A stretch of 62,386 nt of DNA, taken from an uncultured Clostridia bacterium. Lineage in GTDB: Bacteria > Bacillota > Clostridia > UBA1381. Location: assembly GCA_934463455.1 (NCBI GenBank), contig CAKSJU010000001.1:1-62386 (forward strand). The letters are read 5' to 3'. Below are positions 13,399 through 62,386 of the stretch, in pieces. The translations under genes and the position numbers were made by a program. Below the pieces are notes generated by a model, which had not been told where the DNA came from, did no database searches, and saw nothing but the letters and a program-made list of their open reading frames with translations. How positions within the stretch are numbered: the stretch's first letter is position 1; each line of letters opens with the position of its first letter.

Positions 13399-13421
13399 AT
13401 ATACGTCTAATAATATGAAAA

Positions 13422-13459
13422 TTAGCTAATTGTAAAATTTACATTTTACAATTAACTAA
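13422..13459. repeat. AT-rich palindromic element, copy A
   Basis: TTAGCTAATTGTAAAAT-TTAC-ATTTTACAATTAACTAA, lying between the sigma and anti-sigma genes. Confidence 0.85.
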
Positions 13460-13487
13460 ATATGAAAATGAAAAGGAGGAGATGCCG

Positions 13488-14510
13488 ATGAAGGAATGTG
13501 AAAGAGCTTCCGAAAAAGCAGAAAAATACATTGATAACGAAATGACGGCGGAAGAAAAACAAGAATTTGAAGCACATGTTGCGGCATGTCCTTCATGCAG
13601 GGAAGAGTTGGAATTTGCAAAAGCCGTAAGAGCGGCTGTCGGAAGCATGGAAAAGCCAAAGGTACCCGAAAATTTCATGGATAATATCAATAAAGCGATA
13701 GACAAAAAGCCGGAAAAACATTACATAAGCCGATTTACAAATTTCAGATTTGTTTCTACCTTGGCGGCTTGCCTTTTGATAGCAATTGTGCTTTCTGTAA
13801 ACAATAACGGAAAAATAAACGATGAGCTTACCGAAAAAACAAGATTTCATGAAATTGCGAAACAGCCCGTCGGCGATATGATTTTGTCTAATGATACCGA
13901 TAAAACCTCGGAGGATGCAGCTGCCGAAGAAAAGACGGAAAAAGAAAAAGCTGTCAGCATAAACAAAAACACAAAAAAAGAGGTAAAAACCGATAAAAAA
14001 GAAGAGCAAGTCAAAGAAACAGAAACAGCTTCATTTGATAAAAAAGAGTATCCAAAAGCCGAAGATACCGCAATAGCAGAAACGGAAAATACAGCTGCAC
14101 CGGAGATGAAAAGCATTTCTTTAATCGAAGAGCATCAAGTTTTGTCGGAGAACAGTGTCGCAGATGCAGGAGCTGCGGATATGCAAGCCGAAAGTATGCC
14201 GCAAAATACATCGGAAAAATCTTCTGACAACGGTGATTTCGGTATAAGCGGAGCTGCATCCACGGGCGGTGGCGGCGGAGGAGACAGCGTGAGAATGTTT
14301 AAGGGCGAACAAGTAATGTATATAGATGAAGAACATTTCGAAAAAGCGAAAGAAGCCGCATTAAAATACGGTAAAGCTGCTGAGGAAGATTTTGAAATGG
14401 ACGAATACGGATACGGCGAATTTTTGAAATATTTGGATTCGATAGGTGCTGAGTACAATTTATTAAATTCGTACGGAGATACAATTGTATTCTCTTTGGA
14501 AATTAAATAG
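13488..14510 (+). CDS. Anti-sigma factor (zf-HC2), single-pass membrane protein
   Basis: H-x3-C-x2-C motif (AHVAACPSCREEL) and a TM segment FVSTLAACLLIAIVLSV. It lies directly downstream of the sigma factor. ATG 13488 is 8 nt after GGAGG. Confidence 0.8.
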   Translation: MKECERASEKAEKYIDNEMTAEEKQEFEAHVAACPSCREELEFAKAVRAAVGSMEKPKVPENFMDNINKAIDKKPEKHYISRFTNFRFVSTLAACLLIAIVLSVNNNGKINDELTEKTRFHEIAKQPVGDMILSNDTDKTSEDAAAEEKTEKEKAVSINKNTKKEVKTDKKEEQVKETETASFDKKEYPKAEDTAIAETENTAAPEMKSISLIEEHQVLSENSVADAGAADMQAESMPQNTSEKSSDNGDFGISGAASTGGGGGGDSVRMFKGEQVMYIDEEHFEKAKEAALKYGKAAEEDFEMDEYGYGEFLKYLDSIGAEYNLLNSYGDTIVFSLEIK

Positions 14511-21135: not shown

Positions 21136-21150
21136 TCGTACAAAAGACAT

Positions 21151-21186
21151 TAATTAATTGTGAAAATTTAGTTTTACAACCAGTTA
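21151..21186. repeat. AT-rich palindromic element, copy B
   Basis: TAATTAATTGTGAAAA-TTTA-GTTTTACAACCAGTTA, upstream of the ECF S component gene. Confidence 0.8.
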
Positions 21187-21213
21187 AAAAAGATATTGAA
21201 AGGATGAAGCAAA

Positions 21214-21759
21214 ATGAATAATACAAAAAAACTGACAATCTTGGGTGTACTCGGAGCTTTGTCGGTAATCCTTGTTACTCTGATACATTTTCCGATTTTT
21301 CCCGCAGCATCATTTTTGGAATATGACCCGGCAGATATACCTATTTTTGTTGCGGCATTTTTGATAGGACCGCTGTCGGGATTTGTTCTGACGGTTGTTG
21401 TATCGGTAATTCAGGGAGTGACGGTGAGCTCGGCAAGCGGATATATAGGAATATTGATGCATATATTTTCAACCGGTGCCTTTGTGCTTGCAGCAGGGAA
21501 TATTTACAGAATAAACAGAACAAAAAAAGGTGCGATGGCAGGACTTGCAGTTGGAGTGGCGGTTATGACCGCAGTGATGACCTTGTGGAATTTGCTGCTG
21601 ACTCCGATATTTATGGGAGTGCCGAGACAGGCTGTTGCGGAATTGCTTCTTCCCGCAATTCTTCCTTTTAACATTATAAAATCGGGAGTAAATGCAATCG
21701 TTACCATGTTTGTTTATAAAAAAATATCAACCTTTGTCAATAAGCATATATCAAAGTAA
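21214..21759 (+). CDS. ECF transporter S component (RibU-like; substrate not assignable)
   Basis: 181 aa with about 6 TM segments, containing ..FLEYDPADIPIFVAAFLIGPLSG.. typical of ECF S components. I found no recognisable riboswitch upstream. Confidence 0.65.
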   Translation: MNNTKKLTILGVLGALSVILVTLIHFPIFPAASFLEYDPADIPIFVAAFLIGPLSGFVLTVVVSVIQGVTVSSASGYIGILMHIFSTGAFVLAAGNIYRINRTKKGAMAGLAVGVAVMTAVMTLWNLLLTPIFMGVPRQAVAELLLPAILPFNIIKSGVNAIVTMFVYKKISTFVNKHISK

Positions 21760-29170: not shown

Positions 29171-29175
29171 ATAAC

Positions 29176-29227
29176 AAATACGCCCTCATACAGACAAAAT
29201 TGTTTATATGAAGGCGTATTTGTTTTT
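29176..29227 (+). terminator. Intrinsic terminator after purF
   Basis: AATACGCC...GGCGTATT stem followed by TGTTTTT. Confidence 0.65.
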
Positions 29228-37209: not shown

Positions 37210-37257
37210 AATTGAAAATAAAATTTGATTTAAAAAGCTAATTTTTATTTCTACTCA

Positions 37258-37297
37258 AGAGTTTTAATTGTGAAACTTTAGTTTTACAATTAGCTGA
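37258..37297. repeat. AT-rich palindromic element, copy C
   Basis: AGAGTTTTAATTGTGAAAC-TTTA-GTTTTACAATTAGCTGA, upstream of fhs. It is identical to copy F over 40 nt. Confidence 0.9.
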
Positions 37298-37325
37298 ATT
37301 TAAAAATCACAAAGGAGGAATATTT

Positions 37326-38996
37326 GTGCTGACGGATATTGAAATAGCTCAAAATGCGAAAATGCTGCCGATTAAAGAGGTGGCGGAAAAAATAGGAATA
37401 GACGAGGAATATTTGGAATATTACGGAAAATATAAGGCGAAAATTTCTTCGGACTATATTAAAAAGACAAAAAATAGCAAAAACGGAAAGCTCATTTTGG
37501 TTACGGCAATAAATCCAACTCCGGCAGGAGAGGGAAAAACCACTACTACCGTAGGCTTGGGCGATGCTCTTTCGAGAATCGGGAAAAAGTGTGTGCTTGC
37601 TCTTCGTGAGCCTTCGCTCGGTCCTGTTATGGGAATTAAAGGCGGAGCTGCGGGAGGCGGCTACAGCCAGGTTGTTCCGATGGAGGATATTAACCTGCAC
37701 TTTACCGGTGACATGCACGCCATAACCGCGGCAAACAACTTGTTGTCCGCGATGATAGATAACCACATACATCAGGGCAATGAGCTTGATATAGATGTTT
37801 CGAATATTGTCTGGAAGAGAGTGCTTGATATGAATGACCGTGCTTTGAGGAGTACGGTGGTTGCACTTGGGGGAAAAATTAACGGAGTACCGAGAGAAGA
37901 CGGATTTATGATAACCGTCGCATCGGAAATAATGGCGATTTTGTGCCTTGCGGAGGATATTAATGATTTAAAGGCAAGGCTCGGAAATATTATTATCGGG
38001 TATAATCGTTCGGGACAGCCGGTTTTTGCGCGGGATTTGAAAGCAGACGGCGCGATGACGGCACTTTTGAAAGATGCGATAAAGCCTAACCTTGTACAAA
38101 CTCTTGAAAATACTCCATGCTTTGTACATGGCGGACCTTTTGCAAATATTGCACACGGCTGCAACAGTGTAACGGCAACAAAGCTTGCATTGAAAGCAGG
38201 CGATTACACGGTTACCGAAGCAGGCTTCGGAGCGGATTTGGGTGCGGAAAAATTTATGGACATTAAGTGTCGGTTTGCGGGACTTAAGCCGGATGCGGTG
38301 GTGATTGTAGCTACCGTAAGAGCACTTAAATATAACGGCGGGATAAGCAAAGCGGATTTGAAAACTCCCAATGTTGACGCTCTTTTAAAGGGACTTGTAA
38401 ATTTGGAAAAGCATATAGAAAATATGCAGAAATACGGTGTTGGTGTAGTTGTTGCGATTAACAGATTTGAAAGCGATTCGGAGGAAGAACTTGAAACCGT
38501 AATAAAAGCATGTGCTAAATATAATGTGGAATGTTCACTTTCGGAAGTGTTTGCAAAAGGCGGAGAGGGCGGAATTGACCTTGCCGAAAAGGTGCTTAAT
38601 AAAATCGAAGAGCAACCGTCATGCTATAAACCGCTTTATGATGAAAAGCTTCCGATAAAAGAAAAAATAAATAAAATCGTTACCGAAATATACGGAGGAG
38701 AAAAAGCGGTATATACAAAAAAAGCGGAAAAGGAAATCAAAAAACTCGAAGAGCTGGGACTTGATAAAATGCCGGTATGTATGGCAAAAACTCAGTACTC
38801 GCTTTCCGATGACCCTACGCTTTTGGGACGACCGGAGAATTTTACGGTCACGGTATCAAGAGTGAGAGTATCTAACGGAGCGGGATTTATTGTAGCGGAA
38901 ACAGGCGATATTATGGTAATGCCGGGTCTCCCGAAGGTTCCTGCGGCAACTAAAATCGATATTGATGAAAACGGCGTAATAAGCGGATTGTTCTAA
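37326..38996 (+). CDS. fhs: Formate--tetrahydrofolate ligase
   Basis: 556 aa, containing ..[20 protein letters not shown].. and ..[18 protein letters not shown]... GTG start after AAAGGAGG. Confidence 0.95.
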
Positions 38997-41181: not shown

Positions 41182-41224
41182 ATTAAGAATATTGTTAGAG
41201 TGGTATATATTATATAAATATAAA

Positions 41225-41264
41225 TTTAGCTAATTGTAAAACTAAAGTTGCACAATTAACTAAA
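41225..41264. repeat. AT-rich palindromic element, copy D
   Basis: TTTAGCTAATTGTAAAAC-TAAA-GTTGCACAATTAACTAAA, upstream of the EF-G paralogue. Confidence 0.85.
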
Positions 41265-41290
41265 ATATAAATTAGTTTGGAGGATTGTTT

Positions 41291-43357
41291 ATGCGAGATT
41301 ATGCAATGGATACAATAAGAAATGTGGCTGTTATGGGACATGGTAAGTGCGGAAAAACTTCAATGGTTGAAGCTATGCTGTATAACAGCGGATGTATTGA
41401 CCGTATGGGTACTGTTGCCGAGGGAAATACCACAACAGACTATGATGCGGACGAAATAAAAAGACAATGTTCGATTTCAATGTCGCTGGCTCCGATTGAG
41501 TGGAAAGACATGAAATATAATATATTGGATACACCGGGATTTTTTGATTTTGCGGGTGAAGTAAAAGAGGGTATACGTGCGGCTGATTCGGCACTTATTG
41601 TACTTTCCGGGCGCAGCGGAGTTTCCGTCGGAACGGAGCAGGTTTTTAAATATGCAAAACAAAAGAATGTTCCGATAATGTTTTTTGTTAATAAAATTGA
41701 CGACCATCGTGCGGATTATCAGCGTACGCTTGAAGAAATGAAGCAAGTATTCGGCAAGGCTGTTACGCCTTTTGTGTATCCCATACGCGAAGGGGATGAG
41801 TTTAAAGGCTTTGTCGATATTGTTGATATGACCGCGCGCCGTTATGAGGGAAAAGACAGAGTTGATATTCCCGTTCCGGAGGGCATGGACGAGATTGTTG
41901 CGCCTCTCCGCGAGATGATTATGGAAGCTGTTGCCGAAACGGATGAGGCTTTGATGAACAAATATTTTAACGGAGAGGAATTCACTTTTGATGAAATAAA
42001 AAAGGCTATCCGAAAAGGTGTAAAGGACGGCAGTATATATCCTGTGTACTGTGGCTCGGGCGCGGAAAATATAGGTGTAAGAAGTCTTATGGACGGAATA
42101 GGCAAATATCTGCCGAATCCGAACGAGATTGCCGAAATTGCTCATGACGCAAAAACCGGAGAGCCTATAGAAGTTGTTCAGGACGCAGCCGATACCACGG
42201 CGGCAATAGTATTTAAAACCATAACCGACCCATATGTCGGAAAAATGTCTTTGTTCAGAGTATACTCGGGCAAAGTAAAGGCGGATTCGGTTTTGTATAA
42301 TCCAAATAAAGGCGTAAATGAAAAAATAGGTAAAATATTTATGCTCCGCGGAAAAAAACAAATTGACGCAAAAGAAATAAATGCCGGTGATATAGGCGTT
42401 GTTGCGAAGCTTGACGCTACAAAAACAGGCGATACCTTGTGCGATGAAAATAAAAATATTATTCTGAGCGGAATTGAATTTCCGTCACCGGTATTGTCGA
42501 TGGCAATTCTTCCACTTGCTAAAGGCGATGAAGAAAAGATAGTATCGGGACTTAATAAACTGACGGACGAGGACCCGACATTCAACATAAATCAAAACAG
42601 TGAAACAAAGCAAACCTTGATAAACGGACAGGGAGAGCAGCATATAGATGTTATAAGACAAAAACTGAAAGCAAAGTACGGCGTGGATATGAAGCTTGAA
42701 GAGCCTATAGTTCCTTACAGAGAAACAATACAGGCAAAGGTTAAAGCGGAGGGCAAGCACAAAAAGCAATCCGGCGGTCATGGTCAGTACGGGCATGTAT
42801 GGATTGAGTTTGAGCCGGGCAGCAATGAAAAAATGACCTTTGAAGAAAAGGTATTCGGCGGAAGCGTGCCGAAGAACTATTTCCCGGCTGTCGAAAAAGG
42901 CTTAAGGGAAGCATGCGAACACGGAGTTTTGGCGGGGTATCCGGTAGTTAATCTGAAAGCCACGCTTTTGGACGGCTCGTATCACCCGGTGGATTCTTCA
43001 GAAATGGCATTTAAAATGGCTGCGGCAATAGCATATAAAGAGGGATTGAAACAGGCAAAACCGGTACTTTTGGAGCCGATTGGATATTTGAAGGTTTATG
43101 TTCCGGAAAGCATAATGGGAGATATAATCGGAGATATAAACAAACGCAGAGGTCAGATAATGGGCATGGGAGAAAGCGAAAAAGAAGGACTTAACCTGGT
43201 TGAAGCGGAAGTCCCGATGTCTGAGATGTTTAAATATGCAACAGATTTAAGGTCGATGAGTCAGGGCAGAGGAATTTTCACCTTTGATTTTGCTCGTTAC
43301 GATAAAGCTCCCGAAGCGGTTGCGCAAAAGGTTATAGAGAGCAGGAAAGCTGAATAA
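41291..43357 (+). CDS. Elongation factor G paralogue with atypical P-loop
   Basis: About 688 aa. G1 is GHGKCGKTS (canonical EF-G has AHIDAGKTT). G3 DTPGFFDF, G4 NKID and the domain IV loop KKQSGGHGQYGHV are retained. Confidence 0.75.
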   Translation: MRDYAMDTIRNVAVMGHGKCGKTSMVEAMLYNSGCIDRMGTVAEGNTTTDYDADEIKRQCSISMSLAPIEWKDMKYNILDTPGFFDFAGEVKEGIRAADSALIVLSGRSGVSVGTEQVFKYAKQKNVPIMFFVNKIDDHRADYQRTLEEMKQVFGKAVTPFVYPIREGDEFKGFVDIVDMTARRYEGKDRVDIPVPEGMDEIVAPLREMIMEAVAETDEALMNKYFNGEEFTFDEIKKAIRKGVKDGSIYPVYCGSGAENIGVRSLMDGIGKYLPNPNEIAEIAHDAKTGEPIEVVQDAADTTAAIVFKTITDPYVGKMSLFRVYSGKVKADSVLYNPNKGVNEKIGKIFMLRGKKQIDAKEINAGDIGVVAKLDATKTGDTLCDENKNIILSGIEFPSPVLSMAILPLAKGDEEKIVSGLNKLTDEDPTFNINQNSETKQTLINGQGEQHIDVIRQKLKAKYGVDMKLEEPIVPYRETIQAKVKAEGKHKKQSGGHGQYGHVWIEFEPGSNEKMTFEEKVFGGSVPKNYFPAVEKGLREACEHGVLAGYPVVNLKATLLDGSYHPVDSSEMAFKMAAAIAYKEGLKQAKPVLLEPIGYLKVYVPESIMGDIIGDINKRRGQIMGMGESEKEGLNLVEAEVPMSEMFKYATDLRSMSQGRGIFTFDFARYDKAPEAVAQKVIESRKAE

Positions 43358-43363
43358 ATGAGA

Positions 43364-43441
43364 ATGTAAAAAAGTTCGGAACTTTTTTACAGCTTATAAA
43401 AAAATAGCGGTGTAATTCATTTTATACACCACTATTTTTTT
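43364..43441. repeat. 3'-intergenic repeat module, copy 4 (two hairpins)
   Basis: ATGTAAAAAAGTTCGGAACTTTTTTACA (12-bp stem), then ATAGCGGTGTAATTCATTTTATACACCACTAT + T7 after the EF-G paralogue. Confidence 0.7.
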
Positions 43442-43593
43442 ACTGTATAGGAAATTGCGTTTTTTGTGTCTGATATAACAGAATAATATTCTCCGTTTAA
43501 AAATGCTTGATATGTGTCGTCGTAATAAGCATTCATTTCTTTATACTTTTTATTGTTATCGCTAATTGTGAAAGCACCTATCAAAATACACAT
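43432..43593 (-). CDS. Small hypothetical ORF (53 aa) at the edge of the prophage remnant
   Basis: MCILIGAFTISDNNKKYKEMNAYYDDTYQAFLNGEYYSVISDTKNAISYTVKK. It is below the ORF-track cutoff and has a weak RBS. Confidence 0.25.
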   Translation of the reverse strand: MCILIGAFTISDNNKKYKEMNAYYDDTYQAFLNGEYYSVISDTKNAISYTVKK

Positions 43594-43610
43594 AAACACC
43601 GCCCAACACG

Positions 43611-44026
43611 CTATTTAACATACTCAATATGCTCGGAGGTCAGCTTTAACAGCTTTGATTTCACGATTGCCGCCGGGTAGGTATCACCGGCAATGACAAA
43701 ATCAGCGACAAAATCCCTTTTGACTTTAATGATAAACTTCTGTCCTTTAAGTGAAAGTTTGACATCACGGTGTAGTCGCGCGTTTTGTTTATTTTGAAAA
43801 CTGCCGTTACAAAAAATCTCCTTTCCTGAAATTAAAAAAGCACCGGGATTTTTTATCAATCCTGACGCTCTCGGTCTGTATTTTCTTTTAACGGTTTGAA
43901 CATTGCGCAGCCTGTTCCTTTGTGGCAATGAATGTACGGGCAAAACGGACTTTTATTATCGAGTAAATATGTGTCATAGCCCGTCTGACATTTGGGGCAT
44001 AGCTGCTCATTATTTTTCTGTTTCAT
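43611..44026 (-). pseudogene. Frameshifted zinc-ribbon phage-type gene
   Basis: ATG 44026 (RBS AAAGGAA) gives MKQKNNEQLCPKCQ...CPYIHCH... The overlapping out-of-frame ORF 43943-43611 continues the reading, consistent with a single gene broken by a frameshift near 43860-43940. Confidence 0.4.
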
Positions 44027-44343
44027 TTTCAAAATTCCTTTCAAAAATTTTGTAGTTGTATCTATCTGTTTTGAGGTAAAAAAATAGCTCCGATTTTTAA
44101 TATCGAAGCGTATTTTGAAAAGAAAAATATTTAATTTTTAGGTTAATACCGTTTATCGACTGTCTGAAACCCTTGATTTTACTGCGTTTTTCATTAAATT
44201 CCATAAGAACCCTCGCACCATACCTATATTATCCGAACTATTTATGTTCGCGATAATGTTAAACTCTGTGATAGATAATTATTGCAGAGTTTTTTTGTGT
44301 GCAGATGAAAAAAAGGCGGTTTAGTCCCGTCCTCAATTATTCA

Positions 44344-44890
44344 TTAATCATACAATCCCGCTCTATCATTTATGACGAGCTGCTTTAAGTCGCTGTCGGT
44401 CAAATGCAGACAGTTCTCATCGCCTTTTAATATTCCTTTATTATCGTATTTCGCCGTCATTGTCTATATATAAAAGCTCTGCGCCGTGACCGAATACCGA
44501 AATATCTTTACCAAGCTGTGTATTAATTGTCTGCTCTGCGCTGTCGGCGAATGTATTGTTCACAAATCCATATTCGCTTATTACGGCTTTTTTGAATTTA
44601 TCATACATAGCGTCCACATATTCTACAGGCTGCCCCGCTGCCTTTAAAGACTATGATTTCAGAATGTACATATTTGTGAATGTTTTATCTATTCCCATGG
44701 CAACAAACGCATGATTTGACTTGTTCCCGCCAAAGTCTACGCCGATATTTATGCATGTCAGCTTCGGCACATCCTCTTTTTTGATAATATACTTTTTCGG
44801 GTCGTTTGCAAACATCGGATATATAAGCCCCTCGGCAACACACCGTTCGCCTAAGATGTCGCGGCGATAAAACACACTTCCGACAGTATA
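44344..44890 (-). pseudogene. Remnant of a phage terminase large subunit (C-terminal nuclease part only)
   Basis: ..VFYRRDILGERCVAEGLIYP..INIGVDFGGNKSNHAFVAMGID.., then an in-frame TAG (44651-44653), then still-coherent ..AAGQPVEYVDAMYDKFKK..FADSAEQT.., then a further frameshift. The N-terminal ATPase half is absent. Confidence 0.6.
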
Positions 44891-45006
44891 TTTTATTTTA
44901 AAACTGATGTTTCTGTTACATTTTTTTGCAAATACAACAAATTTTATAAAATCACATAAATATTTATGTTTAAAATAACAAAAATTAAAAAATATATAAG
45001 AAAGTA

Positions 45007-45035
45007 TTGACAAAAACGATTAGTTATGCTAAACT
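45007..45035 (+). promoter_or_regulatory. feo operon promoter
   Basis: TTGACA (45007-45012), 17 nt, TAAACT (45030-45035). Confidence 0.6.
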
Positions 45036-45097
45036 AACTCATGAAAGTTAGCGAAAGCTAACTGTATATATTGTGTTTGGGTTAGCACAATCTAACC
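45021..45097. promoter_or_regulatory. Three DtxR/IdeR-like inverted repeats (candidate metalloregulator operators)
   Basis: TAGTTATGCTAAACTAACT (45021-45039, overlapping the -10), AGTTAGCGAAAGCTAACT (45046-45063) and GGTTAGCACAATCTAACC (45080-45097). All contain GTTAG-N-CTAAC, as in the DtxR consensus TTAGGTTAGCCTAACCTAA. Confidence 0.55.
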
Positions 45098-45115
45098 GGA
45101 ATGGAGGTCAGAAAA

Positions 45116-45328
45116 ATGATGCCGCTCAGCTTAGCGAATGTGGGAGAAAATAATATCATTAAAAAAATCGGCGGTTTGCCGGAGGTAAAAAAACATCTTG
45201 AAAATCTGGGATTTGTCGTTGGCGGAAATGTACAAGTTGTCAGCACACTCAGCGGAAATGTCATTGTAAATGTCAAGGAAGCGAGAGTTGCCATAAGTGA
45301 AGAAATGGCAAGAAAGATTTATATTTAA
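45116..45328 (+). CDS. feoA: FeoA-family protein (copy 1)
   Basis: 70 aa SH3-like FeoA (..LSLANVGENNIIKKIGG..LENLGFVVGGNVQVVS..). ATG 45116 is 8 nt after GGAGG. Confidence 0.8.
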   Translation: MMPLSLANVGENNIIKKIGGLPEVKKHLENLGFVVGGNVQVVSTLSGNVIVNVKEARVAISEEMARKIYI

Positions 45329-45387
45329 AAAGTTAAATAATGCTTCGAAAAATGCCGGGCGTTTGTCGGAGTATAAAAATTTATATC

Positions 45388-45416
45388 AGTTAATTGTAAA
45401 ATTTGCAATTAACTAA
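45388..45416. repeat. AT-rich palindromic element, copy E (centre-deleted variant)
   Basis: AGTTAATTGTAAAATTTGCAATTAACTAA, between feoA copy 1 and copy 2. Confidence 0.7.
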
Positions 45417-45446
45417 AAAAATCTATATTTATGGGAGGAAGAAAGA

Positions 45447-45668
45447 ATGACAACATTGAAAGAAGCTAAAATCGGCGATACCGTGACGGTTGTTAAGCTG
45501 CACGGAGAAGGTGCGGTAAAGCGGAGACTTATGGATATGGGTATAACAAAGGGCGTATTGGTATACATAAGAAAAGTTGCTCCGCTCGGCGATCCGGTTG
45601 AAGTTACGGTAAGAGGCTATGAGCTTTCTTTAAGAAGAGCAGATGCCGAAATGATAGAAGTACAATAA
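45447..45668 (+). CDS. feoA: FeoA-family protein (copy 2)
   Basis: 73 aa, containing ..LKEAKIGDTVTVVKL.GEGAVKRRLMDMGITKG.. Confidence 0.85.
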   Translation: MTTLKEAKIGDTVTVVKLHGEGAVKRRLMDMGITKGVLVYIRKVAPLGDPVEVTVRGYELSLRRADAEMIEVQ

Positions 45669-45703
45669 TTAATATTTTATAAGCGGGAAAGAGAGGAAGA
45701 AGT

Positions 45704-48208
45704 ATGAATATCAGAATTGCCCTTGCAGGTAATCCGAACTGCGGTAAAACCACATTATTTAACGCATTGACCGGCTCAAATCAGTTTGTAGGAAACTGGC
45801 CGGGCGTTACTGTTGAAAAAAAGGAAGGAAAACTTAAAAAGCATGACGGCGTAATTATAACCGACCTTCCGGGTATTTATTCACTGTCTCCGTATACTTT
45901 GGAGGAAGTTGTTGCAAGAAATTACCTTATCGGTGAAAGACCTGATGCGGTGCTTAACATTATCGACGGTACAAACCTTGAGAGAAACTTATATCTTACA
46001 ACTCAGCTTACAGAGCTTGGCATACCGGTTGTAATTGCAATCAACATGATTGACGTTGTAAGGAAAAACGGCGATAAGATTAATATTGCGGAGCTGTCGA
46101 GAGAACTCGGATGCAAAATTGTTGAAATATCAGCATTAAAAGGCGACGGAGTTATGCAGGCGGCTGAGGAAGCGATAAAAGCGGCACAAAACGGAAAAAC
46201 CGTTCCGATGCACACTTTCAGCGGAGCCGTGGAGCATGCGATAGCACATATCGAAGAAGCTGTTCTTCACAATATGCCGGAGGACGAACAAAGATGGTAT
46301 GCTATAAAAATCTTTGAACGCGATGAAAAGGTTATAGAAAAGCTGGATATTAAACCGGAGGTCATGAAGCATATCGAAGCCGATATTAAAGCGGCTGAGG
46401 AGGAGCTTGATGATGACGCCGAAAGTATTATCACAAATGAAAGATACATATACATTGCGGAAATAATCAAAAGCTGCTACAAAAAGAAAAATGCGGGACA
46501 GCTTTCGAATTCGGATAAAATTGACCGAATTGTTACAAACAGATGGCTCGGACTTCCGATTTTTGCGGTTGTTATGTTCTTGGTTTACTATATCTCAATG
46601 GTTACAATCGGCTCAATGGCAACCGATTGGGCAAATGACGGTCTGTTCGGTGACGGATGGCATTTGTTCGGAATAGGATCTGCCGAGTACGGAGAAGTTT
46701 CCGAGGAATTCGGCGGAGCGGCTGAGGTTGTGAACGGATATATCGAATATGCCGCAGGCAAAGGTGTTGACACCGAGGCTGTCACAGAAGCACTTGATAC
46801 CGAATCGGACAGCTTTGATGCAGCCGCAGCAAAGTCTGCTTTGACGGAATTTGCCGATGAAGCAAAGACTTTGGGCGATGCAACTTACACAGTTGTTGAT
46901 GAAGAGACAATGGCAGATGAAGAGGTTACATCAACATACGATGACTTAACCGAAGCAATTGCAACATATGAAAAATATGATTGTACAGAGCCGGACCCTG
47001 CCGAATACGGAGTTTGGGTACCCGGTGTACCGGTACTTGTCGGAGATGCTTTGGAAAAGGCAAATTGTGCCGAATGGCTTTCGGGCTTGGTTTTGGACGG
47101 TATTGTTGCCGGTGTCGGAGCTGTTTTGGGATTTGTACCTCAAATGCTGGTATTGTTCCTGCTTCTGGCATTCCTGGAGGCTTGCGGATATATGTCAAGA
47201 ATTGCGTTCGTACTTGACCGTGTGTTCAGAAAGTTCGGACTTTCGGGAAAATCATTCATTCCTATGCTTATAGGTACAGGCTGCGGTGTTCCGGGTATTA
47301 TGGCTTCGAGAACGATAGAAAATGACCGTGACCGCAAAATGACTATTATGACGACAACATTTATCCCCTGCGGAGCAAAGGTTCCGTTTATCGCAATGAT
47401 TGCGGGTGCTATATTCGGAGGAAGTGCTTGGGTATCAACTTCTGCTTACTTCATAGGAATGGCAGCAATTGTAATTTCGGGAATTATGCTTAAAAAGACT
47501 GCTATGTTTGCAGGTGACCCGGCTCCGTTCGTTATGGAGCTGCCGGCATACCATATGCCTACTCTCTTGAATGTATTGCGCAGCATGTGGGAACGCGGTT
47601 GGTCATTCATTAAAAAAGCGGGTACAATCATTTTGCTTTCTACAATACTTGTATGGTTTACATCATATTTCGGATTTGTAGGCGGAAAGTTTACAATGCT
47701 TACTGATGAACAGCTTGATATGAGTATACTTGCTGTAGTCGGAAATGCTATAGCGTGGATATTCAAGCCTCTCGGCTGGGGTACATGGCAGGCAGCGGTT
47801 GCATCGATTACCGGTCTTGTTGCAAAGGAAAATATTGTCGGAACAATGGGTATACTCTACGGCGGCGGAGACGGCACCGTTTATGCAAATCTGGCACAGG
47901 CATTTACAGGCATTACGGGATATTCATTCTTGGTATTTAACCTGCTTTGCGCACCGTGCTTTGCGGCAATCGGAGCTATTAAACGTGAAATGAATAATGC
48001 AAAATGGACATGGTTTGCGATTGGTTATCAATGCTTGTTTGCTTATGCTGTAGCTTTGGTTATTAACCAAATCGGAAATGCGTTTACGGGAAACGTAAAT
48101 GTAATAGGCATTATTGCTGCGGTATTGGTAATTGCGGGCATAATATATATGCTGTTCAAGCCCTATAAGGAAGCAAATACACTTAAGGCGAACGTTAAAG
48201 TAAAGTAA
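45704..48208 (+). CDS. feoB: Ferrous iron transporter FeoB (with a long acidic extracytoplasmic insert)
   Basis: N-terminal G domain IALAGNPNCGKTTLFN..DLPG..NMID, followed by a polytopic membrane domain. An acidic insertion of about 120 aa follows the first TM segment. Confidence 0.95.
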   Translation: MNIRIALAGNPNCGKTTLFNALTGSNQFVGNWPGVTVEKKEGKLKKHDGVIITDLPGIYSLSPYTLEEVVARNYLIGERPDAVLNIIDGTNLERNLYLTTQLTELGIPVVIAINMIDVVRKNGDKINIAELSRELGCKIVEISALKGDGVMQAAEEAIKAAQNGKTVPMHTFSGAVEHAIAHIEEAVLHNMPEDEQRWYAIKIFERDEKVIEKLDIKPEVMKHIEADIKAAEEELDDDAESIITNERYIYIAEIIKSCYKKKNAGQLSNSDKIDRIVTNRWLGLPIFAVVMFLVYYISMVTIGSMATDWANDGLFGDGWHLFGIGSAEYGEVSEEFGGAAEVVNGYIEYAAGKGVDTEAVTEALDTESDSFDAAAAKSALTEFADEAKTLGDATYTVVDEETMADEEVTSTYDDLTEAIATYEKYDCTEPDPAEYGVWVPGVPVLVGDALEKANCAEWLSGLVLDGIVAGVGAVLGFVPQMLVLFLLLAFLEACGYMSRIAFVLDRVFRKFGLSGKSFIPMLIGTGCGVPGIMASRTIENDRDRKMTIMTTTFIPCGAKVPFIAMIAGAIFGGSAWVSTSAYFIGMAAIVISGIMLKKTAMFAGDPAPFVMELPAYHMPTLLNVLRSMWERGWSFIKKAGTIILLSTILVWFTSYFGFVGGKFTMLTDEQLDMSILAVVGNAIAWIFKPLGWGTWQAAVASITGLVAKENIVGTMGILYGGGDGTVYANLAQAFTGITGYSFLVFNLLCAPCFAAIGAIKREMNNAKWTWFAIGYQCLFAYAVALVINQIGNAFTGNVNVIGIIAAVLVIAGIIYMLFKPYKEANTLKANVKVK

Positions 48209-52542: not shown

Positions 52543-52593
52543 AAACTACATAAACAATATTGTCAAAAGGCAATTTGTTAAAAAAAATACTTT

Positions 52594-52633
52594 AGAGTTT
52601 TAATTGTGAAACTTTAGTTTTACAATTAGCTGA
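52594..52633. repeat. AT-rich palindromic element, copy F
   Basis: AGAGTTTTAATTGTGAAAC-TTTA-GTTTTACAATTAGCTGA, upstream of flavodoxin. Confidence 0.9.
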
Positions 52634-52661
52634 TCATTATTTTAAAAGGAGGTTTTACAAT

Positions 52662-53090
52662 ATGAGTAAAACAGCAATTATTTATTGGAGCGGTACAGGC
52701 AACACAGAAGCAATGGCAGCGGCGGTACTGGAGGGGGCAAAAGAAGTTAACTCAGATGTGGGATTTTTCACTGTTTCGGAAATTACTTCGGATAAAGCGG
52801 CTGAATATGACACTCTTATATTAGGCTGCCCCGCAATGGGCTCTGAGGTTTTGGAAGAAAGCGAATTTGAGCCGTTCTTTACAGAGCTTGAATCTAAATT
52901 ATCCGGCAAAAAAGTTGCGCTTTTCGGCTCATACGGCTGGGGAGACGGCGAATGGATGAGAGATTGGGAAGAAAGAGTTATAGCGGCAGGCGCAACGCTT
53001 GCAGGCGGCGAGGGAGTTATCGCAAATGAAGCTCCCGACGATGAAGCGTGCGAAAAATGCAAGGAATTGGGCAAAACAGCAGCGCAATAA
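52662..53090 (+). CDS. Short-chain flavodoxin
   Basis: 142 aa, MSKTAIIYWSGTGNTEAMA.. (FMN phosphate loop) and ..LFGSYGWGDGEWM... Confidence 0.9.
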   Translation: MSKTAIIYWSGTGNTEAMAAAVLEGAKEVNSDVGFFTVSEITSDKAAEYDTLILGCPAMGSEVLEESEFEPFFTELESKLSGKKVALFGSYGWGDGEWMRDWEERVIAAGATLAGGEGVIANEAPDDEACEKCKELGKTAAQ

Positions 53091-56017: not shown

Positions 56018-58558
56018 ATGAAAAAAATGAAAGAAAAAATTGTAGCGTTGTGCAGTATGATTGCGATACTGGCATCTGTGTTTGTTGCTCCCGCAGCGGC
56101 GGAAACAGCAGAGACTATCAGTATTTTGTGTAAGGATCAGGCGGCAAGTAATCCGCAGATATATCGCGGATGGGGTCATGGCGACGCTTTGGGCAATCAA
56201 ACTGACGACATAACCGGGACTATTTCCGCAAAATTTGATTTTACGGTGGAAAAAGCAGGTTGGTATGATGCGGAATTTATAATAGCGTCTAATTCAAGCT
56301 ATCGTTATTCTGCCGGTAATTTTTCGAAGGTTAATTATTGGTTTGACAGCGATAGCCCGAAATGGCTTTCGGATTCGTCTGTAAATGCTGCTTCGCCTAC
56401 GGTGGAAACCTTGAATTATGACCCGCTGAGCACTGCGGAAAACTTTGAACAGACAAAGCTTTTGGAGCCTTTATATTTTGAGGCGGGCAGCCATTCAATT
56501 AATTTTATTACTGACGGAGTAAACAGAAGTAACATTGTTATGGCAGGATTTTATTCAATAAAGCTTAATTATGTTGATTTTTCTGTTATTAATGTTATGT
56601 GCCGAGACCAAAAGGCAGCAAACAGTTCTTTGGAAGAATGGGGAATAGGCGGAAATTACGGAGCTGCGCTGGGTAAAAGAATAAATAATAATAACAATGC
56701 TCAGAAGATTAACGCATCTTTTAAATTTAACATAAAAAACGAGGGTTGGTATTCCGCGAACTTTATTATAGCATCCAATTCCGGCAATGAATATTCTGCC
56801 GGAAATTTTTCGAAGGTCAATTATTGGTTTGACAGTGATAGCCCGAAATGGCTTTCGGATTCAGCGGTAAATCCTTCGTCGCCGACGGTAACAACGGTGA
56901 ATATAGACCCGTTGAATACGTCTCGAAATTATGAACAGACAAAGCTTTTGGAGCCGGTTTATTTTGCGGCGGGAGAGCATACAATTAGTTTTGAAACCTT
57001 TGAGGATAGCAGAGACGGAGCGGCACATGCAGCATTTTATTCGATTAAGCTCGAAAACATTGATGTAAGCTCATTAAATGATATTACGCTTCACGGCGGA
57101 GATTATCCGAATGTAGCTATTGAGGATAAGGATGGCAATGTAAGCTATGTGCAGGCGGAAACAGATAGATATAATTTAAAAGACAAAGGAAAAATAGCCT
57201 TGATATACCGTAACTCATCTAAAGACGGAGCGGAAAACGGATACAAATTCACAATTCCGTTTAAGGTTTATACGGATGGCTACTATGACTGTAATATAAA
57301 GATGTGTTCCTACGCTCGTTTGCCGATAAGTAAATACGGATGGAGTTCACCGGCATATGTTGGAATTGACGCTGAAGCGCCGACATGGATAAAATCATTT
57401 GCGACCGATGAAGATATTGAAGTGACTGCTGAAATTGTTAAAACATTCGGTGATGATACTTATAATTTTGAACCCGGACAGTGGCAGGAATGTGCTCTTA
57501 AACCTATGCACTTGGCAGCGGGAAATCATACTATGACAATTCACATTCCCGAACAGGCACCGAATCAGGAGAGCAACCTTTATATTTTTGCACTTGACAG
57601 CATTCACATCCGCCCGGCAGAAGCTCGGACGAGCTTTACAGCTGAGGGTGAAGAGCTCTGGATTAAAGATAAGAGTGACGTTGTTGAGGACAGTGTATAT
57701 TCAAACGGCTCGGCTGTGAAATATACACAAACAGGTACTGTGAGCGTTCCGTTCTATCTTTCGAGTGACGGAAACTACAATTTCGGGGCAATCGCAAAAG
57801 GAACAGCTTCGTATAGAGTAGACGGAACAGCTGTTTCGGGAATTTCGTCTATCGAGGATTTGCAGGCGACAGTCGGCAGCGGCTGGAACAGATACAAATC
57901 ATCGGTTATGCAGCTTAATGCGGGAGTACATACTCTTGAAATTGACGTAAACGACTCGTATATGCTTGATAAAATAGATATAATAAAAGCAATTAATGTG
58001 ACAGATATTTCCTTGCAGGGAGATGACGTTATATCTGAGGGTCAAAGCAAACTGATGAAAGTCATTAACCAAGACGGAGAAGAAGTGTCTTTGTATGATG
58101 TTGATTCTCTGTGCTTCGAAAGCAACGATGAAAATATTGCCGCGGTAGACGGTTACGGCAATGTCACAGCTGTAAATGCGGGCACGGCCGTAATTACTGT
58201 CGGAGCGGCAGCAGGCGGAAAAAATATGACTGCTTCAAAGAAGATTTATGTACCGGGTAAAACCGGCTTATATCTTAAGGATGCTGCAATAAACGGAAAT
58301 GATGTAACGGTTACGCTTGCGGCAGCTTCGGATGCTGCGGCATCAAAAGTGATAGTTGCTTCGTATGGCGCAGTAAACGGAGTTCCGACATCATTTAAAG
58401 CAGTTAATTTTGCGGATTTCGGTGCAATTTCCGCAAATACAAGCGATACAAAAACAATATCATTAACTTCAATAGAAGCGTCGGATCATGTATGTGTATT
58501 TGTATTTGACGGTCTTGATACAATGGTACCATTGTATGCAAAAACAATCGTAAGATAA
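56018..58558 (+). CDS. Secreted 846-aa protein with tandem CBM-like modules and a Big_2 (bacterial Ig-like) domain
   Basis: It has a signal peptide, two repeats of about 162 aa (56117-56602 and 56603-57089), further beta-sandwich-like modules, and a Big_2-like segment ..ENIAAVDGYGNVTAVNAGTAVITV... Confidence 0.6.
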   Translation: MKKMKEKIVALCSMIAILASVFVAPAAAETAETISILCKDQAASNPQIYRGWGHGDALGNQTDDITGTISAKFDFTVEKAGWYDAEFIIASNSSYRYSAGNFSKVNYWFDSDSPKWLSDSSVNAASPTVETLNYDPLSTAENFEQTKLLEPLYFEAGSHSINFITDGVNRSNIVMAGFYSIKLNYVDFSVINVMCRDQKAANSSLEEWGIGGNYGAALGKRINNNNNAQKINASFKFNIKNEGWYSANFIIASNSGNEYSAGNFSKVNYWFDSDSPKWLSDSAVNPSSPTVTTVNIDPLNTSRNYEQTKLLEPVYFAAGEHTISFETFEDSRDGAAHAAFYSIKLENIDVSSLNDITLHGGDYPNVAIEDKDGNVSYVQAETDRYNLKDKGKIALIYRNSSKDGAENGYKFTIPFKVYTDGYYDCNIKMCSYARLPISKYGWSSPAYVGIDAEAPTWIKSFATDEDIEVTAEIVKTFGDDTYNFEPGQWQECALKPMHLAAGNHTMTIHIPEQAPNQESNLYIFALDSIHIRPAEARTSFTAEGEELWIKDKSDVVEDSVYSNGSAVKYTQTGTVSVPFYLSSDGNYNFGAIAKGTASYRVDGTAVSGISSIEDLQATVGSGWNRYKSSVMQLNAGVHTLEIDVNDSYMLDKIDIIKAINVTDISLQGDDVISEGQSKLMKVINQDGEEVSLYDVDSLCFESNDENIAAVDGYGNVTAVNAGTAVITVGAAAGGKNMTASKKIYVPGKTGLYLKDAAINGNDVTVTLAAASDAAASKVIVASYGAVNGVPTSFKAVNFADFGAISANTSDTKTISLTSIEASDHVCVFVFDGLDTMVPLYAKTIVR
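56117..57089 (+). repeat. Intragenic tandem duplication (2 x ~486 nt)
   Basis: For example, 56308-56400 and 56794-56886 are nearly identical at nucleotide level (..ttctgccgg.aatttttcgaaggt.aattattggtttgacag.gatagcccgaaatggctttcggattc..). Confidence 0.85.
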
Positions 58559-61600: not shown

Positions 61601-61819
61601 AACAGAAATACGAGATTTCATATTGAGGCAAACGTTAATCAGACAAACGAAATCTCTGTAAGATTGGGAGACCGGTATATAAACGACTATTCTTTAAATG
61701 ACGGTAAGCTTGTATTTGATTTCACCGTGAATGAGCGGGGAAAATATGATTTACAAATTACAAACACCGATAAATGGAATTACAAAAATACATCGTTGAT
61801 TAATTTTTATGTAAAATAG
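58634..61819 (+). CDS. Secreted 1061-aa clan GH-A-like glycoside hydrolase with flanking CBM-like modules
   Basis: It has a signal peptide. The (beta/alpha)8-type motifs are ..YAYEIWNEEE.. (acid/base NE) and ..PVWVTEAGI.. (nucleophile TE), flanked by N- and C-terminal beta-sandwich-like regions. Confidence 0.6.
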   Translation: MKKTIRFLFIMTAVLFIAVLPASAESVRTEGENYSDISFDGGYIRNNSNFSEKKALYADVDALIGECRITYNIDAPKDGNYNLTGVTSVFDAYYTTDFDIRINDGDLYMPQVKVLEKYSWTIAGRNDYMARQDFGSVRLNKGQNKLEIILRRDDPHVTDARFITIIDYLEFTSVTEEFKIKEIKALTDAANVFSKGSNAEFKIKFTDAAQTKKTVMFNLYDMTGRKVRNGYVSAAKGKTECMLNLGAMLCGWYKLEISGIETDNILNPIFFSIVDSAKNSSKNSPFGIDKFKSNLYDSKKMYKAAGYMGIDMVRIGNDPYLAMNNENYLETHEDLYRDAEYAEGMKTLVGYEHLGANWSRKSPDNLLEAYEMNKNLASHYKGRGYAYEIWNEEEAQFYEQPADTYASFFKAAAIGISDGDQAAFKMPGGYGGTPENFFVRLLLRNGVTDYADAYAYHNHTSVLRGKSYSKFVESVAKKHMNAALAYDAFQPVWVTEAGINMAVDGNEIPADDTLSSQARYYVVGTVQQLAYGAKKSFWFRMGHFMEDGNEWGTYNKESQPYPAVNSIAMLTKILKKGEFKGTLNTVGDVEGYLFDTGDSDAAVVWSDSEGRCQLYTDLPVKVTSLDRETKEYKPTVMNGGGMVNIPVSYFPIFIEFVGRSDERNYFGIKGFEKNTAAKTYTAADRIVLQQLWEGQDEYQSKVRGYKLSYGQKQKIKFNVYNFNDTQQRGTLNIVSESAVRETEIINLSGRSFEFNIAPMSSQSFEAEVVCNSNAEAGETGFLMLSAKLSDGSEISKSIAAFYADDSERVLSGYDYFENYSDITKWNEKNCGDGITIKKSSPSDGVVRFDVTSKNNNVWYWPSIGLTNYVGDEAGLTFKIRSTKGNEQNVNVYAYCTDGAYWLGITNAVSYDGEWKQVIIPWHRFLVFSGTSTEFDPKKIRSIGIGSYAPAGESSYELKELGFYRSDSPADMSDKGQPIRISGITPDKKYNRNTRFHIEANVNQTNEISVRLGDRYINDYSLNDGKLVFDFTVNERGKYDLQITNTDKWNYKNTSLINFYVK

Positions 61820-61854
61820 TTAGTTGTAAAACTTTAGTTTTACAATTAGCTAGT
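61817..61854. repeat. AT-rich palindromic element, copy G
   Basis: TAGTTAGTTGTAAAAC-TTTA-GTTTTACAATTAGCTAGT, between the GH-A-like gene and the SBP gene. Confidence 0.85.
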
Positions 61855-61883
61855 TATGTAAAATAAAAGGAGGAGCATTAACA

Positions 61884-62386
61884 ATGAAAATTAAGAAAGA
61901 AATGGCATTGGTTTTGGCTTTGGCAGCATTGACCGGAGGTTGTGCAAAACAGGCGGATGACGGAAAAATAACCCTAAAGGTCGGGAATTGGCCGGATGAA
62001 ACAAACGCAGAGTCTCTTACAAAGCAAAATGAATTAAAGGATAAATTTACGGAGGCAAATCCGGGAATTAATATTGTTCCGGACACTTATACGTTTGATA
62101 CAAAAACATTCACTATGAAAGCATCAGCGGATCAGCTTCCGAATTTGTACTCTACATGGTTTACGGAAATAGATAACATAATAAAACAAGGCTATGCAGC
62201 GGACATTACCGAGCAGATGAAAAAGCACGGTTTTGACACTGCAATAAACTCCGAGCTTTTGAATCTTGTAAAGGATGAAAACGGAAAAATATACGGAGTA
62301 CCTACAGACGCATATGCGCAGGGACTTTATATAGATAAAAAGCTGTTTAAAGAAGCGGGGCTTGTAACTGCCGACGGAAGCATAAA
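61884..62386 (+). CDS. ABC transporter extracellular solute-binding lipoprotein (sugar type), 5' partial at the window edge
   Basis: MKIKKEMALVLALAALTGGC lipobox, then ..ITLKVGNWPDE.. RBS AAAGGAGG. The ORF runs off the window. Confidence 0.75.
   Translation, partial: MKIKKEMALVLALAALTGGCAKQADDGKITLKVGNWPDETNAESLTKQNELKDKFTEANPGINIVPDTYTFDTKTFTMKASADQLPNLYSTWFTEIDNIIKQGYAADITEQMKKHGFDTAINSELLNLVKDENGKIYGVPTDAYAQGLYIDKKLFKEAGLVTADGSI

Follow-up and report, generated by a model that had tools for sequence, protein, structure and literature searches.

Short palindromes that recur just upstream of unrelated genes in uncultured gut Clostridia are probably the ends, or the collapsed remnants, of a family of non-autonomous DNA transposons (MITEs) whose insertion was directed to the Shine-Dalgarno (SD) motif and whose copies subsequently decayed. 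On the sequence evidence presented here, we place the probability of this reading at roughly 0.7. The palindromes were noticed in a stretch of 62,386 nucleotides from an uncultured Clostridia bacterium, hereafter the window, and were then followed into related metagenome-assembled genomes (MAGs) and metagenomes. The signatures that would be expected of a mobile element are present: terminal inverted repeats (TIRs), target-site duplications (TSDs), a series of deletion derivatives and one orthologous site that is occupied in one genome and empty in another. The elements also keep a strict positional relationship to the SD motif of the adjacent gene, measured not from the palindrome itself but from the edge of the duplicated target.

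Palindromes in the window

The preliminary description of this DNA reported seven palindromes at 13422-13459, 21151-21186, 37258-37297, 41225-41264, 45388-45416, 52594-52633 and 61817-61854 (copies A to G, in that order), and exactly seven were confirmed. A profile built from the solo copies of other genomes recovers the same seven in the window and nothing more above noise, and the 12-nt half-site TAATTGTRAAAC occurs 13 times with at most one mismatch, where 1.9 occurrences are expected and none of 100 shuffles reaches 13. A stretch of 34 nt is the same in copies C and F (37264-37297 and 52600-52633), and copy E has lost its centre, as had been claimed. Pfam assignments for the downstream genes (zf-HC2 anti-sigma, ECF S component, FTHFS, EF-G-like, FeoA, flavodoxin and SBP_bac_1) bear out their lack of functional relationship. 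Using starts supported by an SD motif (Table 1), we reproduced the reported distances from palindrome centre to start codon, which are 47.5, 45.5, 47.5, 46.5, 46, 47.5 and 49.5 nt for copies A to G. The statement that at least three of the downstream genes are internal cistrons also holds, in that copies A, B and E are internal to operons and occupy what were originally short intergenic gaps.

Table 1. Palindromic elements of the window, their target-site duplications (TSD) and the adjoining gene starts.
Copy	Feature	Span	Strand	Components
A	Left TSD	13412-13422	+	AATATGAAAAT; identical 11-mer at 13459-13469
A	Solo palindrome	13423-13458	none	arm TAGC; core 13427-13454 TAATTGTAAAATTTACATTTTACAATTA; arm ACTA
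A	Right TSD and gene side	13459-13490	+	TSD 13459-13469; 5-nt gap GAAAA; SD GGAGG 13475-13479; ATG 13488 (zf-HC2 anti-sigma)
B	Element with TSDs	21142-21216	+	TSD AAAAGACATT 21142-21151; element 21152-21187; core 21155-21182; TSD AAAAGATATT 21188-21197
B	Gene side		+	SD AAGGATG 21200-21206; ATG 21214 (ECF S component)
C	Truncated MITE with TSDs	37228-37328	+	TSD ATTTAAAAA 37228-37236; truncated MITE 37237-37297; TSD ATTTAAAAA 37298-37306
C	Parts of truncated MITE			degenerate left end GCTAATTTTTATTTCTACTCAAGAGTTT; core 37265-37292; arm GCTGA
C	Gene side		+	GGAGG 37314-37318; GTG 37326 (fhs)
D	Element with TSDs	41216-41293	+	TSD AAATATAAATT 41216-41226; arm TAGC; core 41231-41258; arm ACTA; exact TSD repeat 41263-41273
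D	Gene side		+	gap AGTTT; GGAGG 41279-41283; ATG 41291 (EF-G paralogue)
E	Centre-deleted element with TSDs	45375-45449	+	TSD AAAAATTTATAT 45375-45386; element 45387-45416; TSD AAAAATCTATAT 45417-45428
E	Gene side		+	gap TTATG; GGAGG 45434-45438; ATG 45447 (feoA)
F	One-ended remnant	52588-52664	+	13 nt of MITE interior; core 52601-52628; arm GCTGA
F	Gene side		+	GGAGG 52648-52652; ATG 52662 (flavodoxin)
G	Element with TSDs	61807-61886	+	TSD TTATGTAAAA 61807-61816; arm TAGT; core 61821-61848; arm GCTAG; exact TSD repeat 61854-61863
G	Gene side		+	gap TAAAA; GGAGG 61869-61873; ATG 61884 (sugar SBP)

The copies differ in how much of the parent element described below they retain. Copy A is a right-end-type solo, and its core agrees at every position with the palindrome at the right end of the 216-bp MITE from other genomes. 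Copy C gives an nhmmer match to MITE positions 2-57 on the minus strand, over 37240-37295, and copy F a match to positions 2-44. The duplication is imperfect at copy B, where it reads AAAAGA[C/T]ATT with one mismatch, and at copy E, where the pair reads AAAAAT[T/C]TATAT; no TSD is recognisable in the flanks of copy F. Copy G adjoins the stop codon of the upstream open reading frame (ORF), its left arm containing that codon (TAG, 61817-61819) at the junction of duplication and element; before insertion the same codon would have read TAA, in frame.

As RNA, each of the seven copies folds into a hairpin, with energies between -7 and -17 kcal/mol (-11.5 kcal/mol for copy A), and a promoter-like site lies directly upstream of copy D at 41183-41211. 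The preliminary description knew no Rfam family for the motif and suggested a search; we likewise found no match to Rfam covariance models in the window at the gathering threshold, nor at the elements of eight related loci at E<=0.1. No intrinsic terminator, that is, a G+C-rich stem followed by a U tract, was flagged at copies C to F or at one full-length MITE, and the stems are A+T-rich with no T run after them.

The window is 99.8% identical to human-gut metagenome contigs. At 56362-56674 it differs from one metagenome contig (L001, 13701-13800) by an indel or replacement of about 313 nt against about 100 nt, the remainder being 99.9-100% identical; this is a strain-level difference in which no palindrome is involved. 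Some 1.7 kb at 43358-45100, which separate the EF-G paralogue from the first feoA, hold only short overlapping ORFs, mostly on the minus strand, with a weak DUF6017 match among the public gene calls, and look like decayed or foreign DNA. An inverted repeat at 29173-29224, with 25-nt arms that are 88% complementary and a 2-nt loop, directly follows an amidophosphoribosyltransferase-like gene and is unrelated to the palindromes.

A 216-bp parent element and its deletion derivatives

Genomes, one per species, were scanned for AATTGTRAAA-N6-TTTYACAATT, and the figures that follow refer to the matches listed. Most of these come from CAKSFT01 and CAKSDE01, a pair of MAGs from the Hadza gut that bear the label "uncultured Clostridia bacterium", and a few from other Clostridia MAGs. 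Matches in other phyla look like chance. The sampled loci were selected for strict palindrome matches, and the copies of one family are related by descent and statistically non-independent. The window organism is distinct from CAKSFT01, with feoB only 77% and the YbbR protein 32% identical between them.

In the related MAGs, at least 43 pairs of palindromes stand 173-185 nt apart with a conserved interior between them. Their consensus is 216 nt long with perfect 15-nt TIRs; it starts TAGGTAATTGTAAAA (also written TAGGTAATTGTAAAAC), ends TTTTACAATTACCTA (termini also given as YAGGTAATTGTAAAA...TTTTACAATTACCTR), and is bounded as YAGG-TAATTGTAAAA...TTTTACAATTA-CCTR. Each end of the element is a complete 28-nt palindrome, and by our reading of the fold the interior forms four more hairpins, giving six in a chain overall. 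The whole consensus folds at -72.7 kcal/mol (z = -7.7). No consensus promoter, outward promoter or terminator was matched within the element, and a search of the 216-nt consensus against a plasmid database returned no match.

Shorter forms constitute a nested deletion series in which the palindromes are spaced at about 121, 88 and 43 nt, followed by solo palindromes. Profile matches in the series cover positions 1-42 with 102-212, 2-50 with 108-215, 1-44 with 178-216 and 2-36 with 127-214 of the element, and then solos, with breakpoints that by reading fall at hairpin boundaries. As read from the matches listed, the solo palindromes are of left-end, right-end and chimeric types, which are the expected products of deletion between the two terminal palindromes, and they retain both arms. 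In all, the elements measure 36-326 bp and are non-coding. The 326-bp form (L034) is a composite that has an unrelated interior between two bounding palindromes, carries a 13-bp duplication and obeys the same positional rule, so that other DNA can evidently be carried between palindromes.

These elements are dense, with seven in the 62-kb window and more than 60 in about 45 sampled 8-kb blocks of CAKSFT01, counts that are lower bounds because centre-deleted or degenerate solos such as copy E escape the 7-mismatch search. Further solos of that kind were seen at L075:4925, L078:2421 and L069:3071. Fifteen matches in viral contigs (L100-L114, IMG/VR) were set aside as chance, nearly all of them falling at one conserved coding position of a phage gene, where the 26-nt pattern occurs without arms, duplications or a ribosome-binding-site (RBS) context. 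A first metagenome scan returned nothing for the exact 28-mer that copies C and F share. In higher-GC Clostridia MAGs (L044:1270, L080:265, L018:5049 and L079:5326), a variant of the form CAATTGTAAAAC-N4-GTTTTACAATTG stands by a G+C-rich repeated segment, with an SD motif roughly 14-20 nt away on one side; it is possibly a sister element family.

Target-site duplications and evidence of mobility

Duplications of at least 9 bp flank 61 of 96 elements, compared with 4 of 96 when the flanks are re-paired at random. They are 9-15 bp long with a mode of 12 (with the 4-nt arms, YAGG...CCTR, the peak is at 11-12), AT-rich and without consensus, and they vary in sequence between copies. In the window they accompany six of the seven palindromes (A, B, C, D, E and G). 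The preliminary description had observed that the 15-20 nt between palindrome and SD motif are not conserved; the observation stands, and the spacer is now explained as the duplicated target plus a 5-nt gap. A single case of an occupied and an empty orthologous site was found, beside a gene beginning MEGYNVY that we take to be spoIVA-like: in CAKSDE01 (L069) a degenerate solo palindrome precedes AAAGGAGG by 13 nt, and the corresponding site in CAKSFT01 (L061) is empty.

A search for the source of mobility took in the window together with 96 genome loci and 28 metagenome loci, about 0.8 Mb in all, and found no autonomous element or transposase with these ends. The same loci held no long intragenomic repeats, no half-sites standing alone at the ends of longer elements and, apart from the 326-bp composite, no pairs of palindromes 0.3-6 kb apart that share a TSD. 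A transposase domain was likewise absent from ten large ORFs of the window. One shared segment of about 3.2 kb was considered as a candidate transposon and rejected, as its products are a secreted protein of 887 aa and a second protein of 376 aa, presumably a lipase/esterase-type hydrolase by its look, neither of which is transposase-like on inspection. This segment, which also contains a full-length MITE, is 94-98% identical across MAGs of different assigned species (L015:1-3258, L038:4486-7811, L096:1-3190, L021:6455-8000 and L133), a pattern that indicates either recent horizontal transfer or cross-binning.

Position relative to the Shine-Dalgarno motif

Gene calls for the statistics in this section came from a simple, home-made ORF-based caller and are crude. 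Across 57 flanks, the distance from the end of the core to the start codon peaks at 32-33 nt (range 27-37), or about 47 nt from the palindrome centre. The fixed distance to the starts of unrelated genes that was first described in the window therefore holds outside it as well, in a form that is both more general and more precise; a lack of any genome-wide peak in distance, which the preliminary description had named as the outcome that would count against it, is the reverse of the very sharp peak observed. An RBS-like signal (an SD-like motif, a start and an open frame) is found at the expected offset on one side of 81 of 98 elements, compared with 9.5% of 4,796 random intergenic positions drawn from the same loci. 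When each element is instead placed uniformly within its own intergenic region, 12.8 would be expected to be RBS-adjacent, and 51 are. Even with 150-300 nt of other space free, 13 of 22 elements remain RBS-adjacent, at 25-40 nt from the start. Gaps of less than 80 nt hold 29 of 79 elements, and regions downstream of genes are avoided.

The typical flank reads outward from the core as CCTA, about 13 AT-rich nt, AAAA, GGAG, about 8 nt and ATG, and the most exact relationship within it is between the duplication and the SD motif. A clean TSD is present in 58 elements. In 45 of them GGAG follows it on one side at a distance of 5 nt (in a few cases 4 nt), and 7 of the other 13 have GGAT or GGAC at +5. 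A set of 108 de-duplicated flanks has GGAG at +5 in 39 and at +4 in 3, with no instance elsewhere in the range from -2 to about +14. The standard deviation of the gap between TSD and GGAG is 0.28 nt, whereas that of TSD length is 1.3 and that of the distance from core to GGAG is 1.4; accordingly, it is the gene-proximal boundary of the TSD that is fixed to the SD motif, while the distal boundary floats. Comparison of the variances of the core-to-SD and core-to-start distances did not separate the two reference points, but anchoring on the TSD boundary did so. Within the window, copies A and D fit the +5 rule by automated test and copies C, E and G by reading, and copy B has GGAT at +4.

The motif AAAGGAG accompanies 41% of element-adjacent genes and 7% of other genes. 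Full-length elements show no orientation bias in the end that faces the gene (18 versus 10, with four of the 18 representing one shared site), and full-length, truncated and solo forms follow the same rule in both orientations. A further metagenome scan yielded 28 loci, mostly from one sample with another related organism, in which the same duplications recur and GGAG lies at +5 in nine of nine GGAG flanks. The evidence for the exact rule comes from the window, from several MAGs, two of which contribute most of it, and from a single additional metagenome.

Alternative explanations

Three other accounts of these palindromes deserve consideration. It is improbable, in our estimation, that a leader hairpin at about -47 acts as a stabiliser, processing site, insulator or translation modulator and that positive selection for this role keeps the copies where they are. 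The folding of all seven window copies would suit such a role, as would the promoter-like sites directly upstream of copies D and F, which would bring the hairpin close to the transcript's 5' end, and the persistence of solo hairpins though the element interior is lost. A copy in CAKSFT01 (L049:7048) also occupies the same place upstream of the orthologous feoA as copy E, though the feo locus and its palindrome may have been transferred horizontally: across feoA-feoA-feoB (window 45001-46344, L049:6671-7983) the DNA is 76-77% identical and the FeoA protein 84-89%, in comparison to 32% for YbbR. A functional hairpin does not account for a ruler that is fixed to GGAG and not to the start codon, nor for a hairpin-to-SD distance that follows TSD length, and forms ranging from the 216-bp element through truncated versions to solos with 28-nt cores share the rule in either orientation. 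The enrichment of AAAGGAG at adjacent genes is a prediction of targeting and not of a hairpin model, and no Rfam family is matched. The preliminary description had weakly favoured a sense-strand RNA hairpin, on the strength of G:T mismatches in the arms, over a protein operator or a REP/MITE-like element. The mismatch argument is not borne out by a larger sample, in that 77 gene-oriented palindromes give 22 core mismatches that are G:U-compatible in the sense strand and 12 in the antisense strand by our own tally, a difference that is not significant among copies that are non-independent. The MITE-like alternative is supported by the TSDs, the element of about 216 bp, the deletion series and the occupied/empty site. 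A secondary, RNA-level effect of the transcribed hairpin is possible.

It is decidedly unlikely that a MITE inserts randomly in AT-rich intergenic DNA and that purifying selection alone spares the copies lying between the transcription start and the SD motif. The AT-rich duplications without consensus speak for this account, as do the compact genomes with their many short intergenic gaps. Yet most elements stay close to the RBS where ample space is free (13 of 22), 51 elements are RBS-adjacent where uniform placement predicts 12.8, and the exact 5-nt offset (39 of 42 GGAG flanks) is far sharper than limits of tolerance would yield; selection alone is unlikely to produce a 5-nt ruler. REPs and MITEs usually find refuge downstream of genes, and selection alone would not empty the downstream regions that these elements avoid. 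Very unlikely indeed is an operator for a dimeric regulator of the Rex, CRP/FNR or LacI kind, with the unrelated genes as its regulon, although the core resembles boxes of the TTGTGAA...TTCACAA type and forms a perfect dyad near the promoters of some genes. Rex and CRP-FNR dyads take the form TTGTGAA-N4-6-TTCACAA or TGTGA-N6-TCACA, are non-mobile and serve a functionally coherent regulon. Here the half-site spacing, TTGTGAA-N8-TTTACAA, does not fit the Rex or CRP consensus, the copies are flanked by TSDs and belong to a 216-bp mobile element, three to four of those in the window lie inside operons, their density is far above that of known regulons and the downstream genes have no common functional theme. 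We rejected a Rex/CRP-type operator on its spacing, mobility, operon-internal copies and copy density.

Proposed mechanism and implications

Under the preferred reading of a MITE family with SD-directed insertion, insertion would duplicate 9-15 bp of AT-rich target and be directed to the SD motif as DNA, such that the duplicated stretch stops 5 bp short of GGAG (typically within AAAGGAG) on the side nearer the gene. Both strands would serve as targets, and the element could point either of its ends at the gene. An edge so fixed would leave about 47 nt between the start codon and the middle of the nearer palindrome. The choice of target was presumably made by a transposase acting in trans, and selection would then have removed insertions beside GGAG sites inside genes. 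Stepwise, palindrome-mediated deletions between or at hairpins would shrink the element to a solo palindrome of 36-40 bp, the form of most window copies. The transcribed hairpin would be tolerated in 5' leader or intercistronic RNA and would not be the reason for the position. Several observations sit less comfortably with this reading: the autonomous element or transposase did not turn up in the related sequence searched, TSD lengths of 9-15 bp span a wider range than a single DDE transposase usually produces, the combination of a fixed with a variable boundary departs from textbook geometry, selection could in principle sharpen positional precision, and copy F has no TSD.

A stronger form of the proposal, to which we give even odds on sequence data, is a transposition system addressed by the SD DNA motif, in which one strand-transfer point would be fixed 5 bp upstream of GGAG and the other would float 9-15 bp further upstream, leaving solo-hairpin relics that mark, and may tune, the 5' leaders of at least a tenth of the genes in these genomes. 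With one cut precise and the other variable, the geometry would differ from that of the classical DDE transpososome, which raises the mechanistic question of how one duplication boundary can be exact and the other variable. If the rule reflects target choice, it would add a second class of expression signal that serves as a transposon safe harbour, after the sigma-A promoters used by TnGBS and ISLre2, and if the SD-address reading is true this would be the first RBS-targeting transposon known to us. A transposase that reads a 4-7-bp motif and cuts at a fixed 5-bp offset could, moreover, be useful for the precise placing of cargo between promoter and RBS. For annotation, the palindromes point to true start codons in these Clostridia and should be labelled as relics of mobile elements, not as operators or riboswitch-like motifs. 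They also provide a natural experiment on how expression responds to a hairpin in leader or intercistronic RNA, repeated across many unrelated genes, seven of them within the 62-kb window.

Comparison with known systems

No description of this sequence or of an RBS-directed transposon or MITE was found in the literature searched, and searches with the motif and terminal sequences returned only chance matches. Among MITEs, Correia/NEMIS of Neisseria, RUP of S. pneumoniae and bcr1 of B. cereus are likewise short, non-coding and multi-copy, with TIRs, TSDs and a highly structured interior, and are likewise intergenic and co-transcribed with their neighbours. The elements described here share with this class their TIRs, copy-specific TSDs, small size, non-coding nature, multiple copies and one site of presence and absence. 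They differ in that each end is a complete 28-nt palindrome, decay proceeds to solo palindromes of 36-40 bp, the TSD is long and variable (9-15 bp) and insertion is tied to the base to the SD motif. REP and REPIN sequences, which are associated with RAYT Y1 transposases, also take the form of dispersed hairpin palindromes of 30-40 nt in high copy, singly or as doublets. REPs are not known to have TSDs, occur chiefly downstream of genes and go together with a RAYT gene, whereas here insertion is accompanied by clear duplications and the copies lie upstream of RBSs.

The REP2 (CREN) repeats of Neisseria and the IR repeats of Borrelia each bring a promoter, an RBS and an ATG with them (PMC3184786). 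They resemble the present family as hairpin-containing repeats immediately upstream of many unrelated genes; in contrast, the RBS and start used here belong to the host and lie beyond a variable duplicated target, and there is no promoter-like site within the element. The closest precedent for the behaviour is that of TnGBS, ISLre2 and ISKra4, elements with prokaryotic Mutator-like DDE transposases. Their insertions fall 15-17 bp ahead of the -35 box of sigma-A promoters, and with symmetric inverted repeats the signal may lie on either side of the element (PMC3942029). As in those systems, the elements of the Clostridia keep a fixed distance from a gene-expression signal without a unique site, find a "safe harbour" upstream of genes and may have the signal on either side. 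The signal here is the RBS and not the promoter, the start codon lying only about 33 nt from the core (27-37 nt from its end) and the SD motif 5 nt past the TSD, and several copies, including A, B and E in the window, have settled inside operons.
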